From contig JACOXT010000004.1 of the NCBI GenBank assembly GCA_016182235.1, positions 28,537-92,536 on the forward strand: a DNA stretch of 64,000 bases, read 5' to 3'. A program made the translations under genes and the position numbers. This document shows positions 55,152 to 64,000 of the stretch, piece by piece; the first letter of the stretch is position 1, and each line of letters starts with the position of its first letter. Source of the stretch: Candidatus Levyibacteriota bacterium (GTDB taxonomy: Bacteria > Patescibacteriota > Microgenomatia > Levybacterales > UBA12049). The notes below the pieces were generated by a model that was not told the origin of the DNA, ran no database searches, and was given only the letters and a program-made list of their open reading frames with translations.

Positions 55152-56324
55152 TTAGTTAGATAGATTGGAGATCTGACCAAAACACTGATTGTTAAAAGGA
55201 GATTCGATTTTTTGACAGAGCATTTGTTTTTGGTTTACGTCAATTGGATCTGAGGCAATTTGCCCAATTACTCTTTGGTAGCATTCATCTTTTAGGTGAG
55301 GAGGGACATTTTGACAGATAAATATTGCTTCGTCTCGACCTCCAACAGAGTAAAATGATCCGGCATTAACAACCAAACAATCATCGTACCAATCTTGTCC
55401 TTCTTGTTGGCAAAGCTCAAATGATTTTGCAGGATCTCCTAGGGTCAGAGGATGGATTTGTCTTGCGACATTATCCATGCACCAAGCTTCATATTCTTCA
55501 TTTTCAACCGTTTGGCAAAGCTCTGATGTTTTGACTATGTCTCCGTTGTTCATTTGGTAGATTCTTGCTGCCTGATTTAGCCAGCAGCCTCTTTGATATT
55601 TTTCGGGAAAAGCATTACAGGGGAAATAAGGGTCATCTGATATCCAGTCTCGTATTTGTTCTTTACCCGTACCCCAATCATGAACACCAAAAAGATTTTC
55701 CATAAAAGCGCCGTTATGGCAGGACGATAAGGCTTCAGGAAACTGAGCTTCTTTTTCATAGAGCTCATCGCAAGTTGTGAGTGCCTTGGGCAATTCATAA
55801 TTCCACATGGCAAGTATTGAGTGTCCGGCGGCATGGACACATTGAAAATAACGAACAGAAGACTCCTTGCATTTGTCAGTCATCTTTTCAATTGCTTCAA
55901 ATCCCTGGTCTGAGGCTGCCTCAATTATTGTTCCGTGATAACATGCGTAGAGAAAATAGTCTTTGCATTTGAGAATCGAATCAGCGCCGTATTTTTTGTA
56001 AGCAAAAAATCCGATTTGATGTACGACTAAATGTCCCTCTCCTGTATGAGGAAGAGGAGAATGTTCTAGGATTTCTAGGGCTTCCTCCACATCTACTCTT
56101 TCAACGAGTTTCCTTGCAGCCTTTAGTCTTTTTTCTTGATCTTTAGGATCTAATATATCTTTCATCTCCGGAACGTCTTTATAAGAGGTTGAAGTTATTT
56201 GAGTTTCTGCAATAGGTGCGGACTTAATAAGGGTTTTGCTCCACTTATTAATCGATGGGGTTGCGTTTACTATTCCAGCCAATAAACCGCCTAACAAAAT
56301 AATTATAACTATCTTTTTTATCAT
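55152..56324 (-). CDS. Secreted protein with a single copy of the Cys/His-motif domain (paralog of 49602-52079)
   Basis: It has a signal peptide and the motifs ACYHGTIIEA, CVHAAGHS, CHNGAFMEN and DDPYFPCN. Confidence 0.6.
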   Translation of the reverse strand: MIKKIVIIILLGGLLAGIVNATPSINKWSKTLIKSAPIAETQITSTSYKDVPEMKDILDPKDQEKRLKAARKLVERVDVEEALEILEHSPLPHTGEGHLVVHQIGFFAYKKYGADSILKCKDYFLYACYHGTIIEAASDQGFEAIEKMTDKCKESSVRYFQCVHAAGHSILAMWNYELPKALTTCDELYEKEAQFPEALSSCHNGAFMENLFGVHDWGTGKEQIRDWISDDPYFPCNAFPEKYQRGCWLNQAARIYQMNNGDIVKTSELCQTVENEEYEAWCMDNVARQIHPLTLGDPAKSFELCQQEGQDWYDDCLVVNAGSFYSVGGRDEAIFICQNVPPHLKDECYQRVIGQIASDPIDVNQKQMLCQKIESPFNNQCFGQISNLSN

Positions 56325-57570: not shown

Positions 57571-58194
57571 AGAATAATTATGTTTACTCCTATTTCTCTG
57601 CCCAATATTAAAAACATCACTGTTTCAGGTCGAATTGGCTCTGGTACAACGACTCTTGCAAAGGGTTTGTCAAAAGCTCTAGGATGGTCACTTCTTGAAG
57701 GAGGAGTGTTATTTGAGAAAATTCATAAAGAGATCTTAAATGACAAATCAGAACTAGCAGTAGATGCCCGGCCGGATAAATTTGATCTTGAATACGAAGA
57801 GAAAATAAAAAAGATGTTAAAAGACGCAAAAAATCAGATTATACAAAGTCACTTAGCTGGCTTTGACGCACAGGGCATGGAAGGTGTTTTTAAGATTTTA
57901 GTGCTATGTACAGATGATGAGGGAAATGACAAGACTGGGATTAGAATAGATAGATTAGTCAACAGACGAGGTGTTTCAATCGAAGAGGCAAAAGAAGATG
58001 TTCTAATGAGAGAAAAACGTAACTTAGATAAATGGCGAAAGCTTTATGCAGAAGGGGATTCTAATTGGGTATATTGGGACAGAAAGTATTATGATCTTGT
58101 GATCAATACCTACTCCCACAATCAAGACGAGACTCTAAAAGTAGCTCTTAAGGCAATTGGGTTGAAGTATCGACAGCCCTCAATTGAGGTCTAG
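57565..58194 (+). CDS. Cytidylate-kinase-like P-loop kinase
   Basis: The P-loop is VSGRIGSGTTTLAK. The size and pattern fit the cytidylate kinase-like family. The start may be the Met at 57580, since 57565 lies inside the palindromic element. Confidence 0.6.
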   Translation: MTRIIMFTPISLPNIKNITVSGRIGSGTTTLAKGLSKALGWSLLEGGVLFEKIHKEILNDKSELAVDARPDKFDLEYEEKIKKMLKDAKNQIIQSHLAGFDAQGMEGVFKILVLCTDDEGNDKTGIRIDRLVNRRGVSIEEAKEDVLMREKRNLDKWRKLYAEGDSNWVYWDRKYYDLVINTYSHNQDETLKVALKAIGLKYRQPSIEV

Positions 58195-59068
58195 GCTCCC
58201 TACAGATAATAACAGGCAATTTTCTTAAAGGACCATTTGAGGTTTGGAAAAATCTGTAATCCAGAGGTGGATTCACTGTGACAAGAGTTCTAGAGACTCC
58301 GTTGAAATTTCTTTCTACTAGATTTCTTTGTTCGTCATTCATTCCTCCTTCGTAACCAGCATGATATCCAAAAAAGGCAAAAACTCCATCGGGCTCTAAG
58401 CATTTTACCAAAGTTTCCAGATCTAATAAGTCGTTTACGCTTCGTTCATCCTCGGATAGTGGAAATGTGTCAGAAATAATAATATCAAATTTTTTTCCTT
58501 CTCCTGCTAATCTTCTAGTTTCCTCAAATGCATCTCCTTCTATAACTTCAATTCCTACATTGAGCCCTCTAAATATACCCCCAATTTCACTAGTGGCTTT
58601 AGCTCTAGATATGGTAGTCTGTTTTTGTCTCCAAGTTGTATTGGCGTAATTGGCAACTTTTCTATTAAGTTCAATAACAGTATAGCTACCGCCTAAGTCC
58701 CTTAGATAATCCATAACCTGCGTAGCTATTAAACCTAATCCAAATCCTCTTTCTAAGACCCTCACGTCTTTTTTGTCACCAAGTTCCTCAAATGCTTCAA
58801 ATGCTTTACGAACTGTTTCCTCTGCCCAAGGTTTTTGACAGGAATCCATTACCTCATCTTGATCTCCTATCCAAAGCCTTACGCCTGCTGAATATTCATA
58901 GATATTTCCTTCTCCATCAACAGCCGTTCCATGTCGATATCTCGAAATATCTTGCGGCGCGTTTCTCCACTTCTCAACCAGTACCTCTCTGGGCGTTAGC
59001 TTTTCGGCTTGCCCACTATCGAAGGAAGCTTCAGTTGGTATGCATGCTGGTTGCGCTTCGCTATTCAT
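58148..59068 (-). CDS. Class I SAM-dependent methyltransferase / spermidine-synthase-like fold
   Basis: Motif I is VLERGFGLGLIA, and an acidic DIIISDTF follows. The 3' end overlaps the convergent kinase-like gene by 47 nt. Confidence 0.55.
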   Translation of the reverse strand: MNSEAQPACIPTEASFDSGQAEKLTPREVLVEKWRNAPQDISRYRHGTAVDGEGNIYEYSAGVRLWIGDQDEVMDSCQKPWAEETVRKAFEAFEELGDKKDVRVLERGFGLGLIATQVMDYLRDLGGSYTVIELNRKVANYANTTWRQKQTTISRAKATSEIGGIFRGLNVGIEVIEGDAFEETRRLAGEGKKFDIIISDTFPLSEDERSVNDLLDLETLVKCLEPDGVFAFFGYHAGYEGGMNDEQRNLVERNFNGVSRTLVTVNPPLDYRFFQTSNGPLRKLPVIICREPRPQLRAVDTSTQLP

Positions 59069-61177: not shown

Positions 61178-61206
61178 TTGACATAGTAGATTTAGTGTTT
61201 TAATAT
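61178..61206 (+). promoter_or_regulatory. Sigma70-like promoter of nrdR-nrdJ
   Basis: TTGACA (61178-61183), a 17-nt spacer, then TAATAT (61201-61206). Confidence 0.6.
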
Positions 61207-61214
61207 ACTTATGA

Positions 61215-61229
61215 ACACTATTAGTAGTG
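61215..61229 (+). promoter_or_regulatory. NrdR-box-like palindrome
   Basis: ACACTATTAGTAGTG (inverted repeat CACTA-n4-TAGTG) sits just downstream of the -10 element. It resembles the NrdR box consensus acaCwAtATaTwGtgt. A weaker ACATAGTAGATTTAGTGT lies at 61181-61198, about 33 nt centre to centre. Confidence 0.45.
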
Positions 61230-61248
61230 CTTGAGCGTTAACAAGTTT

Positions 61249-61698
61249 ATGAAGTGTCCTTACTGCGGATCGAAAGATACAGAAGTAGTTGAAACACGCG
61301 CAAGCGAAGATTTAGATATTATTAGAAGAAGAAGAGAGTGTTTAAAATGTCAAAAAAGATTTACAACATACGAGCGGATTGAAAATATTAATTTGGTCGT
61401 CATTAAAAAAGACGGAAAAAGAGAGCAATTCGACAGAGATAAACTAAAAAACGGAATAATAAGAAGTTGCGAGAAAACAAAGGTCTCAATAGAGCAGATT
61501 GAAAAGATAGTTACGGAGATCGAGAGGGAATTAAGAAGCGCGGATTCAGTTGAGGTAGAAAGCAAAAAAATCGGCCAGATGGTAGCAGGAAAACTAAAAA
61601 AGATTGACAAAGTTGCGTATATTAGATTTTCAAGTGTATTTAAGAGGTTTGTTGACGTAGAGGATTTTGAGAAAGAAGTCAGGAGGCTAATAAAATAA
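61249..61698 (+). CDS. nrdR: Transcriptional repressor NrdR
   Basis: The zinc ribbon is MKCPYCGS...CLKCQKRFTTYE, followed by an ATP-cone. I moved the start to the ATG at 61249; the track used an upstream TTG. Confidence 0.9.
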   Translation: MKCPYCGSKDTEVVETRASEDLDIIRRRRECLKCQKRFTTYERIENINLVVIKKDGKREQFDRDKLKNGIIRSCEKTKVSIEQIEKIVTEIERELRSADSVEVESKKIGQMVAGKLKKIDKVAYIRFSSVFKRFVDVEDFEKEVRRLIK

Positions 61699-61700
61699 TT

Positions 61701-64000
61701 ATGAAGCTTGATGGAATAAGGGGAAAAGTATTTTTGGACAGATACGCTCTCAAGGGAGTGAAGGGTGAGCTTTTGGAGCATACGCCCCCTCAGATGTGGA
61801 AAAGGGTTGCTCGCGGAATTGCCCAGAACGAAAAACCAAAAGATAGAAAGTATTGGGAGAAAAAGTTCTACTCGGTTATGGAAGATTTCAAATTCGTACC
61901 CGGGGGAAGGATACTATCAGGCGCCGGAACAAAATATCAGGTAACTTATTTTAATTGCTTTGTAATCCCGTCCCCTAAAGATTCAAGAGAGGGTATTGTG
62001 GATTCTCTTAAGCAGTTAATTGAAATCCAGTCCCGCTCAGGAGGAGTAGGGCTTAATCTCTCATCTCTTAGGCCCCGAGGAGCTCGGGTCAAAAAGGTAA
62101 ATGGGACTTCTTCAGGTCCTGTTACTTGGGCCGGGCTTTTCTCATACGCGACACATGACGTAGTCCAGCAGGGAGGGACAAGACGAGGCGCGACAATGCT
62201 TATGCTTTGGGATTGGCATCCCGACATAGAAGAATTTATAACAGTCAAACAGGACCCATCTAAAATTAACGGAGCAAATCTTTCAGTTTGTATATCTGAT
62301 AGCTTTATGGACGCGGTTAAAAAAGATAAGAATTGGGATTTAGTCTATCCGGATTTAGATGATCCTAATTATGATTCGAAATGGAATGGCGAGATAGACG
62401 AATGGCGTAAAATGAATGGTAAAGTAAAAGTATATAAAACGGTTAAGGCTAAGTATCTTTGGAATCTTATATGTACAGCCGCATGGAGATCTGCAGAGCC
62501 GGGGCTTCATTTCCTAGAGCGCTCCAACAAAAGATCAAATACAGCGTATTTTGAGAAATTAATTGCCACAAATCCGTCACTTAGAGCAGGAACTCGAGTT
62601 TTGACCAAAGAGGGAATTTTTCCAATAGAAGAATTAGAAGGTAAAAAAATTGTTGTTAAGAATTTAGACGGTAAATGGGCCAATGCAGAGTGTTTTTTAT
62701 CTGGGGAAAATAAGGAACTTTATAAAATAACACTTAATAATGGCAAAGAGATATTTGCAACAGCTGAGCATAAATGGCCTGTTCTTCTTGTGGGCGGAGG
62801 TTTTGGTAAAGTTGCAACAGATAAATTACTGACAGGCAATATTTTGCCTTTTCCAAAAACAGAGGATATCCAGTTTAATGCAAGAACAACTTTTTCAAAA
62901 GAAGAAGGATTTATGCTTGGTTGGTTATATGGGGACGGATGGATTTCAATTAGAGGGATAAAAGCTAAAGTTGATACTCTGCCGTTTCCTTATAAGAATT
63001 CTTTTATGGGGCCAACTAATATTCGCAATTTTTCTCCTGAACCCATATTGTCGATTAATAGCATATCTTCTATTCATCACGATATCCATAAGGAAGATAA
63101 AAAAGCAGTTTATTCGAAAAAGAAAGAAGAATGGGTATTTGGTTTTCTTTTTTCAGAAGAAGATGAGGCTTTGGCAGGTAGAATAGAAAGTCAAGTAAAT
63201 AAACTTAAAAGAGTGAAAAGTAATCTGAGGAAAGCAAGCGGTAATACGTATACTATACAAGTTACATCTTTGGAATTTGCAGAAAAACTTGCTTCCCTTT
63301 ATGGAGTTGGTAAAAAAGAAAAAGGATTGCCGTCATCTGTTTGGGGATCAGGAAGTGATTTTATTAAAGGGTTTGTGGATGGGTTGATAAGCTCCGATGG
63401 GTTTATTGCTAGGAATGCAAATAGGATTATTCTTACAACCAAACACAAGAAGATAGCTGAGGATTTTTCTGACCTCTTAAGCTTCTACGGTATTAAAAAT
63501 AATATTAGAAGAAGTGAATCTGAGAATATCAAGTTTCCGAATGGAAAAAAGTATTACAGAACCTATGAGAGATATGATGTAAGCATAGATGGGCATAACG
63601 TAGTCCAGTTTGGCAAGATTTTTAAATTATCTCATCCAAGAAAGCAGAGAAATCTTCAAAGAATAATAAGCGAATATACATCATCACGCAAATCACCAGA
63701 TGAAGAGTTGATACGAATAAAGTCAGTTGAAAAAACCAACATAAGAGAAAATGTATGGGACGTCTCTGTTTATGATGATGCACACTGTTTTTACATTAGT
63801 CATTGTATTACTGGCAATTGTGGCGAACAGCCCCTTGGGGCTTGGGCTGTTTGTAATTTAGGGGCAATGAATTTGGCCGCTTATGTCGGGAACGGTAAAT
63901 TTGATTATAAAAATTTTGGCCTTGATCTAAAGGTAGCACTTCGATTATTGGATAACGTTATTGATCAAACATATTACTTCTTCAAGGAGAACGAAAAGTG
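61701..64000 (+). CDS. nrdJ: Class II (B12-dependent) ribonucleotide reductase NrdJ, 3' end outside window, interrupted by an intein
   Basis: By manual translation the frame is open from the ATG at 61701 to the window end. Motifs are FLDRYALK, TYFNCFV, GGVGLNLSSLRPRGA and GGTRRGA. The active-site motif NP|CGEQPL is split at 62576/63819. Confidence 0.9.
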   Translation, partial: MKLDGIRGKVFLDRYALKGVKGELLEHTPPQMWKRVARGIAQNEKPKDRKYWEKKFYSVMEDFKFVPGGRILSGAGTKYQVTYFNCFVIPSPKDSREGIVDSLKQLIEIQSRSGGVGLNLSSLRPRGARVKKVNGTSSGPVTWAGLFSYATHDVVQQGGTRRGATMLMLWDWHPDIEEFITVKQDPSKINGANLSVCISDSFMDAVKKDKNWDLVYPDLDDPNYDSKWNGEIDEWRKMNGKVKVYKTVKAKYLWNLICTAAWRSAEPGLHFLERSNKRSNTAYFEKLIATNPSLRAGTRVLTKEGIFPIEELEGKKIVVKNLDGKWANAECFLSGENKELYKITLNNGKEIFATAEHKWPVLLVGGGFGKVATDKLLTGNILPFPKTEDIQFNARTTFSKEEGFMLGWLYGDGWISIRGIKAKVDTLPFPYKNSFMGPTNIRNFSPEPILSINSISSIHHDIHKEDKKAVYSKKKEEWVFGFLFSEEDEALAGRIESQVNKLKRVKSNLRKASGNTYTIQVTSLEFAEKLASLYGVGKKEKGLPSSVWGSGSDFIKGFVDGLISSDGFIARNANRIILTTKHKKIAEDFSDLLSFYGIKNNIRRSESENIKFPNGKKYYRTYERYDVSIDGHNVVQFGKIFKLSHPRKQRNLQRIISEYTSSRKSPDEELIRIKSVEKTNIRENVWDVSVYDDAHCFYISHCITGNCGEQPLGAWAVCNLGAMNLAAYVGNGKFDYKNFGLDLKVALRLLDNVIDQTYYFFKENEK
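62577..63818 (+). mobile_element. Intein (414 aa) with a LAGLIDADG homing-endonuclease domain
   Basis: It starts SLRAGTRVLTKEG (Ser1) and has block B TAEH. The DOD motifs are LGWLYGDGWI and FVDGLISSDGFI. It ends ...ISHCITGN, followed by the extein Cys+1 (CGEQPL). Confidence 0.85.

Follow-up and report, generated by a model that had tools for sequence, protein, structure and literature searches.

In ribonucleotide reductases (RNRs), inteins are most often inserted just before the thiyl-radical cysteine, on its N-terminal side (Dassa et al. 2009, PMC2677866). The nucleophile pair Ser1/Cys+1 is rare, being known from a single intein, GOS-TerL, yet it is functional (PMC10189870, PMC11766414); a 2025 review calls it uncommon (PMC11766414), and mutational work on GOS-TerL, as summarised in these two papers, showed that splicing passes through an oxoester. 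The penultimate His, typical of intein C-termini, is dispensable in several inteins (PMC7664689, PMC4031507). These characters meet in the window analysed here, a stretch of 64,000 nt of contig JACOXT010000004.1 from a Candidatus Levyibacteriota bacterium, where nrdJ, the gene of class II RNR, is interrupted by an insert; the nrdJ fragment at positions 61701-64000 of the plus strand was analysed.

The insert is very probably a bifunctional intein with the pair Ser1/Cys+1, composed of a HINT domain and a two-motif LAGLIDADG endonuclease, and this copy would be capable of both splicing and DNA cleavage, as far as its sequence allows one to judge. A previous sequence-only reading of the fragment had stressed the position of the insert at the catalytic cysteine and its Gly-Asn end. 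An intein at the catalytic cysteine of RNR is already known and ordinary, and the site is not special; the Gly-Asn end is, according to the family alignments, a family-wide Thr-Gly-Asn signature and not a lesion of this copy. That reading did not single out the rarer feature, a nucleophile pair consisting of Ser1 and Cys+1.

Host gene and insertion site

Translation of the plus strand from ATG 61701 to the window end at 64000 gave 766 sense codons and no stop, as had been claimed for this frame, which is absent from the list of open reading frames (ORFs) because it runs off the window end. The 766-residue product is divided into amino acids 1-292, 293-706 and 707-766, and the motifs LIATNP and CGEQPLGAW are separated by exactly the 414 aa counted before:

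61701..62576, plus strand: N-extein of nrdJ, amino acids 1-292, ending with FEKLIATNP and aligning to Thermotoga maritima NrdJ up to Pro321
62577..63818, plus strand: putative intein, 414 aa, a HINT domain interrupted by a LAGLIDADG homing endonuclease (Pfam, NCBIfam, AlphaFold2, Foldseek)
63819..64000, plus strand: C-extein of nrdJ, cut by the window end, starting with CGEQPLGAW; the Cys+1 codon TGT is at 63819-63821

The 3' end of nrdJ is known from a database protein, P0001, alone and not from DNA. This protein of 1211 aa, labelled 'MAG: hypothetical protein HYT07_03805, Candidatus Levybacteria bacterium' (MAG, metagenome-assembled genome) and encoded on a contig of 96 kb, is 100% identical to all 766 window residues and then continues to a stop, adding the remaining 445 residues beyond the window end. 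A scan of genome contigs for relatives of the window locus returned L001 as the only related locus.

Removal of the 414-aa intein from P0001 leaves 797 aa, and intein-free orthologues have about 800 aa. The spliced protein is aligned with PRK08665 end to end in a single stretch (6-797 to 15-758/759) and scores 579.7 bits with the NrdJ equivalog model TIGR02504 NrdJ_Z, above the cutoff of 399.95, versus only 355 with the class I model TIGR02506 (cutoff 341). Its best match in the PDB is T. maritima NrdJ (1xje, 2e-75). Therefore only one intein is present, and the host belongs to the class II RNRs, as the sequence-only reading had held; no second insert was found in spliced P0001, including the 3' part that this protein supplies. 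With 352 extein residues besides the intein, the window fragment by itself reached 294.9 with TIGR02504, under the cutoff. Judged by these alignments and model scores, the host gene is nrdJ for the adenosylcobalamin-dependent class II ribonucleotide reductase of Candidatus Levybacteria (Patescibacteria, Candidate Phyla Radiation, CPR).

The window product is matched by the Pfam families Ribonuc_red_lgN, Ribonuc_red_lgC, Intein_splicing and LAGLIDADG_3 and by NCBIfam models of B12-dependent RNR and intein_Nterm. The precomputed Pfam list of P0001 includes PF12637 (TSCPD), and a Cys-rich CxxC...CxxC tail is located at the C-terminus. In the alignment, residues C86, N291, C293, E295 and C304 (spliced numbering) pair with C134, N320, C322, E324 and C333 of T. 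maritima, which we take to have the active-site roles generally established for them. The full NrdJ active-site set, namely, the redox Cys pair, the Asn, the Glu and the thiyl Cys of NPCGE, is present in the spliced protein.

T. maritima NrdJ runs through the junction without a gap, as STNPCGE (chain 318-324). Its counterpart of Cys+1 is thus Cys322, which bears out the assignment of the +1 residue as the thiyl-radical cysteine. In 85 of the 120 closest NrdJ homologues, NP and CGE are contiguous (NPCGEQ) and not separated by residues equivalent to the insert. At the nucleotide level an intein-free nrdJ site would read ATTGCCACAAATCCG/TGTGGCGAACAGCCCCTTGG (here and below, a slash marks the splice junction), and the peptide expected across the restored NrdJ junction is IATNPCGEQPLGAW, with ATNPCGEQ as its core.

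Domains and catalytic residues of the insert

The insert begins with SLRAGTRVLT and finishes with HCITGN, and its junction codons are CCG/TCA and AAT/TGT. The Ser start, the TAEH of block B, the two LAGLIDADG motifs and the GN end, on which the sequence-only reading had based its call of an intein, were all found. The following features were assigned:

62577..62615, plus strand: block A, SLRAGTRVLTKEG, with the Ser1 codon TCA at 62577-62579
62685..62705, plus strand: A-x-C-x-x-S-G motif (A37, C39, S42, G43), recognised from family conservation
62742..62783, plus strand: block B, GKEIFATAEHKWPV, with T62 (B:7), H65 (B:10) and W67 (B:12); TAEH is intein residues 62-65
62889..63686, plus strand: LAGLIDADG endonuclease domain, intein residues ~105-370 (Pfam, AlphaFold2, Foldseek)
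62904-62942, plus strand: LAGLIDADG motif 1, LGWLYGDGW, residues 114-122, with the predicted catalytic D120 (sequence)
62961..63119, plus strand: indel-rich loop of ~53 aa after LAGLIDADG motif 1, residues 129-181, predicted disordered, with a predicted local distance difference test score (pLDDT) <50
63360-63404, plus strand: LAGLIDADG motif 2, FVDGLISSDGF, residues 266-276, with the predicted catalytic D274 (sequence)
63750..63818, plus strand: block F, NVWDVSVYDDAHCFY (D395, H403), and block G, SHCITGN (T412, G413, N414) (sequence)

The intein matches Pfam LAGLIDADG_3 with an E-value of 1.2e-8. Its AlphaFold2 model, built on an alignment of 23 sequences, has a pLDDT of 84.9 and a predicted template modelling score (pTM) of 0.82, and is confident except for residues 129-181. 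The top Foldseek matches in the PDB are PI-PfuI (1dq3, the RNR intein of P. furiosus, E 5e-19), the TliVMA intein, PI-SceI and PI-TkoII, followed at lower ranks by the free-standing LAGLIDADG enzymes I-DmoI, I-OnuI, I-SmaMI and I-SceI. These matches support the predicted LAGLIDADG double-domain fold alpha-beta-beta-alpha-beta-beta-alpha, and both LAGLIDADG helices terminate in Asp (D120, D274).

The features of a class 1 intein are represented by Ser1, the TxxH of block B, the Asp and His of block F, Asn414 followed by Cys+1, and the HINT fold. The penultimate His (G:6) is absent and replaced by Gly413, a known variant, as had been remarked (PMC7664689; PMC4031507, refs 74-75). Assignment to class 3 was considered and rejected: Trp67 and Thr412 fit this class, but residue F:4 is Asp395, not Cys, and Ser1 is present. 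The same resemblance of blocks B and G to class 3 has been noted for gp41-1 (PMC12245125).

The disordered loop at 62961-63119 is hypervariable or absent in homologues, and absent, in particular, from protein P0019. A search for repeats or a nested element around it gave only chance-level matches.

A family of NrdJ inteins and its signature

Exhaustive phmmer search against 1.84 billion cluster representatives revealed a family of 155 clusters at E<=1e-30 and 287 at E<=1e-10. It took phmmer to see this family: a word-indexed search with the intein only returned just 8 matches and missed the identical protein. The median length of the family members is 358 aa, versus 414 aa for the window intein.

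Junctions were read in the best 147 family members. The N-terminal junction is NP/S in 136/140, with Cys1 in 2/140. At the C-terminal junction, TGN/C was found in 114/125, SGN/C in 4/125 and THN/C in 4/125; residue +1 is Cys in all 125 and is followed by the (G/S/A)E of the RNR catalytic loop.

Blocks A, B, F and G, for which the sequence-only reading had proposed a conservation check, are highly conserved throughout an alignment of 130 family representatives. Ser1 is present in 128/130, both exceptions being Cys. Block B retains T62 in 125 (Ser in the other 5), H65 in all 130 and W67 in 128; block F retains D395 in 129 and H403 in 124. For block G the counts are 126 for T412 (with Ser in 4 more), 122 for G413 and 129 for N414, while His at G:6 occurs in only 4 of the 130 sequences. 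Both acidic LAGLIDADG residues are kept in 97/130. Residues A37 (121/130), C39 (124/130), S42 (126/130) and G43 (119/130) are conserved at 92-97%, whereas Cys404 and Cys410 occur in 65/130 and 73/130. The A-x-C-x-x-S-G motif formed by the former four occupies the region of the 'NX' histidine in Ser1/Ser+1 inteins.

Across these alignments, Ser1 and the penultimate Gly together mark a large intein family specific to NrdJ. A member was also found in the complete phage genome MW202615.1, where it interrupts a monomeric class II ribonucleoside-triphosphate reductase (GSNP/SLRKGT...GITGN/CAEI). A large family of contiguous, endonuclease-bearing Ser1/Cys+1 inteins with a Thr-Gly-Asn end is apparently undescribed; a limited literature search, with InBase outside it, found nothing on RNR inteins of CPR bacteria.

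Selection on the intein and exteins

The ratio of nonsynonymous to synonymous substitution rates (dN/dS) was calculated by the Nei-Gojobori method for the window versus two homologous loci, L001 and L002. The intein is under purifying selection. Its whole-length dN/dS is 0.14 versus L001 and 0.11 versus L002, with 0.05-0.12 in the HINT parts and about 0.15 in the endonuclease core; the disordered loop, at 0.39-1.09, is near neutral. The exteins are highly conserved and share 82-84% identity with intein-free orthologues. When the window is compared with L001, the proportion of synonymous differences (pS) is 0.52 in the intein, below the saturated 0.83-0.87 of the exteins; this suggests, without proving it, that the split of these host genes predates the intein.

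Signs of homing and competing inteins at the insertion site

Among the 120 nearest NrdJ proteins, the site is empty in 85 and occupied by an intein with a readable junction in 33. Four unrelated intein types are represented:

Type a, S...TGN: 18 of the 120 nearest NrdJ
Type b, C...SRG: 5 of the 120 nearest NrdJ
Type c, C...SFD: 2 of the 120 nearest NrdJ
Type d, C...HN: 8 of the 120 nearest NrdJ

Their distribution does not track extein similarity, most clearly in proteins P0004 (type a) and P0026 (type b), which have exteins 99.5% identical over 815 aa, but inteins only 29% identical. Their loci, L002 and L003, from samples SRR22388262 and SRR22388339, respectively, are syntenic and 95-98% identical, and homology between them stops exactly at the ends of the inteins (3880-5127 in L002 and 3303-4406 in L003). 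Upstream of the site, 12-20 differences per 150 nt occur over 600 nt, against a background of 0-3 per 150 nt; downstream, 8 differences fall in the first 41 nt, followed by none for >1 kb. Near the site, hardly any of the extein substitutions is nonsynonymous, given the 99.5% identity of the extein proteins. Such flanking tracts are the pattern expected of co-conversion and point to ongoing homing.

Several other arrangements were observed in related proteins. Type b inteins end with (V/I)VSRG/CGEQ in 8/8 proteins (P0021, P0023, P0026, P0030, P0117, P0129, P0130 and P0133) from Levybacteria, Blackburnbacteria and Anaerolineae; in L003 (3303-4406) the codons are TCA CGA GGA/TGT, and the ORFs are intact. 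They terminate in Gly, although cyclisation normally requires Asn, Gln or Asp at this position, and only these three are listed as C-terminal residues of class 1 inteins (PMC7664689). The Gly-ended type b inteins may be a more novel lead than the window intein.

Proteins P0022 and P0025 carry a third type, which ends with GIVSFD/CGEQ and has a C-terminal Asp, the same atypical ending as in the Chy RIR1 intein. In the NrdJ of P0008 two inteins are present, S...TGN at NP/C and one of 425 aa at VQQGG/CFSADSRIM...GFYTSN/SRRGAT; the second also has no penultimate His (Ser-Asn end). P0121 and P0122 read RCNP/S...ITGN/CVAGETQVEF...CTPDHRILTKRGW...QIIQA(stop), that is, an S...TGN intein followed directly by an apparent N-fragment of a split intein. 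Two inteins would thus share one site in tandem, and the second would lend its Cys1 to the first as residue +1. P0125 (427 aa) consists of an S...TGN intein with 11 N-terminal and 9 C-terminal extein residues (MTTYGITGHNP/.../CGEQCALTQ), while P0126 (391 aa) is without exteins and ends with CFTGTSV, with no terminal Asn. Both may be derivatives of the S...TGN family that have become free-standing, much as HO endonuclease is related to the VMA1 intein.

Proposed splicing mechanism and alternatives

Most likely, the intein would follow a class 1 splicing route with an unusual set of residues. An N-to-O acyl shift of Ser1 at the Pro(-1)-Ser1 bond would be aided by Thr62 and His65 of block B; the thiol of Cys+1 would attack the resulting oxoester to give a branched thioester, a thermodynamically uphill step; Asn414 would form a succinimide without a penultimate His, with help presumably from the His403/Asp395 pair and the Thr412 hydroxyl; and an S-to-N shift would restore the ATNPCGEQ loop. 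The hydroxyl of the G:5 Thr, conserved here as Thr412, promotes Asn cyclisation in gp41-1 (PMC12245125). The LAGLIDADG domain, in which Asp120 and Asp274 are intact, would cut intein-less nrdJ alleles and spread by gene conversion. With the finger loop of the radical cysteine interrupted, NrdJ must be inactive before splicing. The exact restoration of NPCGE, the family-wide conservation of catalytic residues, purifying selection and the recombination tracts in relatives support this scheme.

Several points weigh against it. Splicing is known or expected to be slowed by each of three features, namely, the uphill O-to-S exchange, the Pro at -1 and the Gly at G:6. The window, 64 kb long, comes from a metagenome-assembled genome in which a second RNR could make nrdJ dispensable. 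The GC contrast between the intein (34%) and the exteins (43%) is no evidence of foreign origin, and was rejected as a sign of it: the intein equals the local background of 33-34%, and it is the exteins that are GC-richer.

It is possible, although improbable, that the Ser1...Thr-Gly-Asn/Cys+1 inteins of NrdJ represent a mechanistically distinct, uncatalogued subclass. Its own catalytic solution, comprising A-x-C-x-x-S-G, the block B Trp and the G:5 Thr with no G:6 His, would drive both the oxoester-to-thioester transfer and Asn cyclisation; Cys39 might then serve as a relay nucleophile or a redox gate.

A class 2-like route, in which, as in Mja KlbA, the Pro(-1)-Ser1 peptide bond would be the direct target of Cys+1 and Ser1 would be only structural or hydrogen-bonding, is quite unlikely. 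Such a route is consistent with the O-to-S exchange being unfavourable and described for one intein only (PMC10189870, PMC11766414), and with the family having A-x-C-x-x-S-G in place of a conserved 'NX' His, the residue by which Ser1 is activated in Ser1/Ser+1 inteins. However, the only substitute for Ser1 in the family alignment is Cys, another nucleophile; the Thr and His of block B, which serve the N-terminal acyl shift, are kept throughout; known class 2 inteins have Ala1; and GOS-TerL passes through the oxoester according to the summaries cited above.

Very unlikely, too, is a decaying, non-splicing intein that makes nrdJ a de facto pseudogene, with deoxynucleotides coming from another RNR or from a host cell. 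The non-canonical G:6 residue, the near-neutral 53-aa disordered loop within the endonuclease domain, the annotation of P0001 merely as a hypothetical protein and the frequent host dependence of CPR bacteria, which is general knowledge, would fit decay. Against it stand a frame open across 1211 codons, conservation of every splicing residue over 130 clusters, dN/dS of 0.05-0.15 in the HINT and endonuclease cores and the similarity of the exteins to intein-free orthologues; moreover, the TGN end is an ancestral character of the family and not a recent lesion, and nrdR, as well as a gene of adenosylcobalamin synthesis in relatives, is kept beside nrdJ.

Hardly to be expected is a conditional, for example redox, switch, in which Cys+1 would be held in a disulfide by Cys39, Cys404 and Cys410, and maturation of NrdJ would require reducing conditions: redox-controlled inteins exist (e.g. 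PMC6195587), Cys39 is well conserved and the +1 residue is itself the redox-active catalytic cysteine, but the proposal is purely inferential, Cys404 and Cys410 are only moderately conserved, and other intein types occupy the NP/CGE site without the A-x-C-x-x-S-G motif.

Genes adjacent to nrdJ

Directly upstream of nrdJ, the gene of its putative regulator is located:

61249..61698, plus strand: nrdR, encoding the NrdR repressor (Pfam Zn_ribbon_NrdR, ATP-cone)

The genes nrdR and nrdJ are probably co-transcribed, since nrdR ends 2 nt before nrdJ. The true start of nrdR is likely ATG 61249 (MKCP...), versus TTG 61231 in the ORF list. The order nrdR-nrdJ is also found in L002 and L003, where NrdR has 149 aa, and the longer order GAPDH - kinase - DUF5667 - nrdR - nrdJ is common to the window and these two loci. 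Directly downstream of nrdJ in the syntenic L002 and L003, a gene of cob(I)alamin adenosyltransferase (Cob_adeno_trans) is present. A Pfam scan of six ORFs within 6.5 kb upstream of nrdJ revealed no nrdB.

A sigma-70-like sequence, TTGACA-17 nt-TAATAT, lies upstream of nrdR, within 61179-61251, and no match to a remembered consensus of the NrdR box was found near nrdR. The ORFs 55152-56324 (minus strand, 390 aa) and 58148-59068 (minus strand, 306 aa), located among genes of GAPDH, a cytidylate-kinase-like protein and a CBS-methyltransferase, have no Pfam match. Search of the window by tblastn with five intein types revealed no further inteins.

Comparison with known inteins

If the family did form a distinct subclass, the Ser1/Cys+1 pair, thought to be a one-off, would be a widespread natural strategy. 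Its clusters, at least 155 in number, provide many natural test cases for the tuning of the HINT domain to nucleophile pairs and for doing without the penultimate His, as well as possible splicing tools. Competing inteins swapped at one site in near-identical CPR strains, as in L002 and L003, offer a clean example of homing in uncultivated bacteria at nucleotide resolution. The interest of the window intein is moderate and mainly concerns intein mechanists; its location at the catalytic cysteine itself changes nothing.

The Ceu ClpP intein of Wang & Liu 1997 reportedly has Gly at the penultimate position and is said to splice poorly in E. coli unless this Gly is replaced by His. In the NrdJ inteins the Gly is virtually invariant in a large family under purifying selection, and a built-in compensation is therefore implied. 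Asn cyclisation without the G:6 His is shared with Ceu ClpP, the inteins of Chen, Benner & Perler 2000 and Ssp DnaE, which belong to other hosts and families.

The contiguous RIR1 inteins of class I/II RNRs, catalogued in InBase (Dassa et al. 2009, PMC2677866; including Pyrococcus-type NrdJ, PRK08332), have the same host family, the same site and the same architecture of HINT plus LAGLIDADG; PRK08332 carries ~380 extra model positions between the matches to Pro292 and Cys+1. The window intein differs from them in Ser1 instead of Cys1, in Thr-Gly-Asn instead of x-His-Asn, and in the disordered loop of ~53 aa found in the CPR subgroup. The RNR intein PI-PfuI is its best structural match, at only 12% identity, and no significant sequence similarity to solved RNR inteins was revealed (no sequence match in the PDB). 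The Mth RIR1 intein reportedly occupies the NP/C site as well and has an inhibitory Pro at -1.

GOS-TerL (Bachmann & Mootz 2015, as described in PMC10189870 and PMC11766414) has the same Ser1/Cys+1 pair and, in these descriptions, no 'NX' histidine. It is a split mini-intein without an endonuclease, located in a phage terminase large subunit, whereas the window intein is contiguous, carries LAGLIDADG and is without the penultimate His; the likeness is by description only. The closest solved HINT domain by sequence is that of gp41-1, matched over residues 5-69 of the N-lobe with an E-value of 8e-4 for the engineered WCT form (6riz) and 0.016 for the wild type (6qaz). The G:5 Thr and block B (..EH.(F/W)P.) are common to gp41-1 and the window intein, but gp41-1 is a split mini-intein of a phage helicase, with Cys1/Ser+1 and a Thr-His-Asn end.

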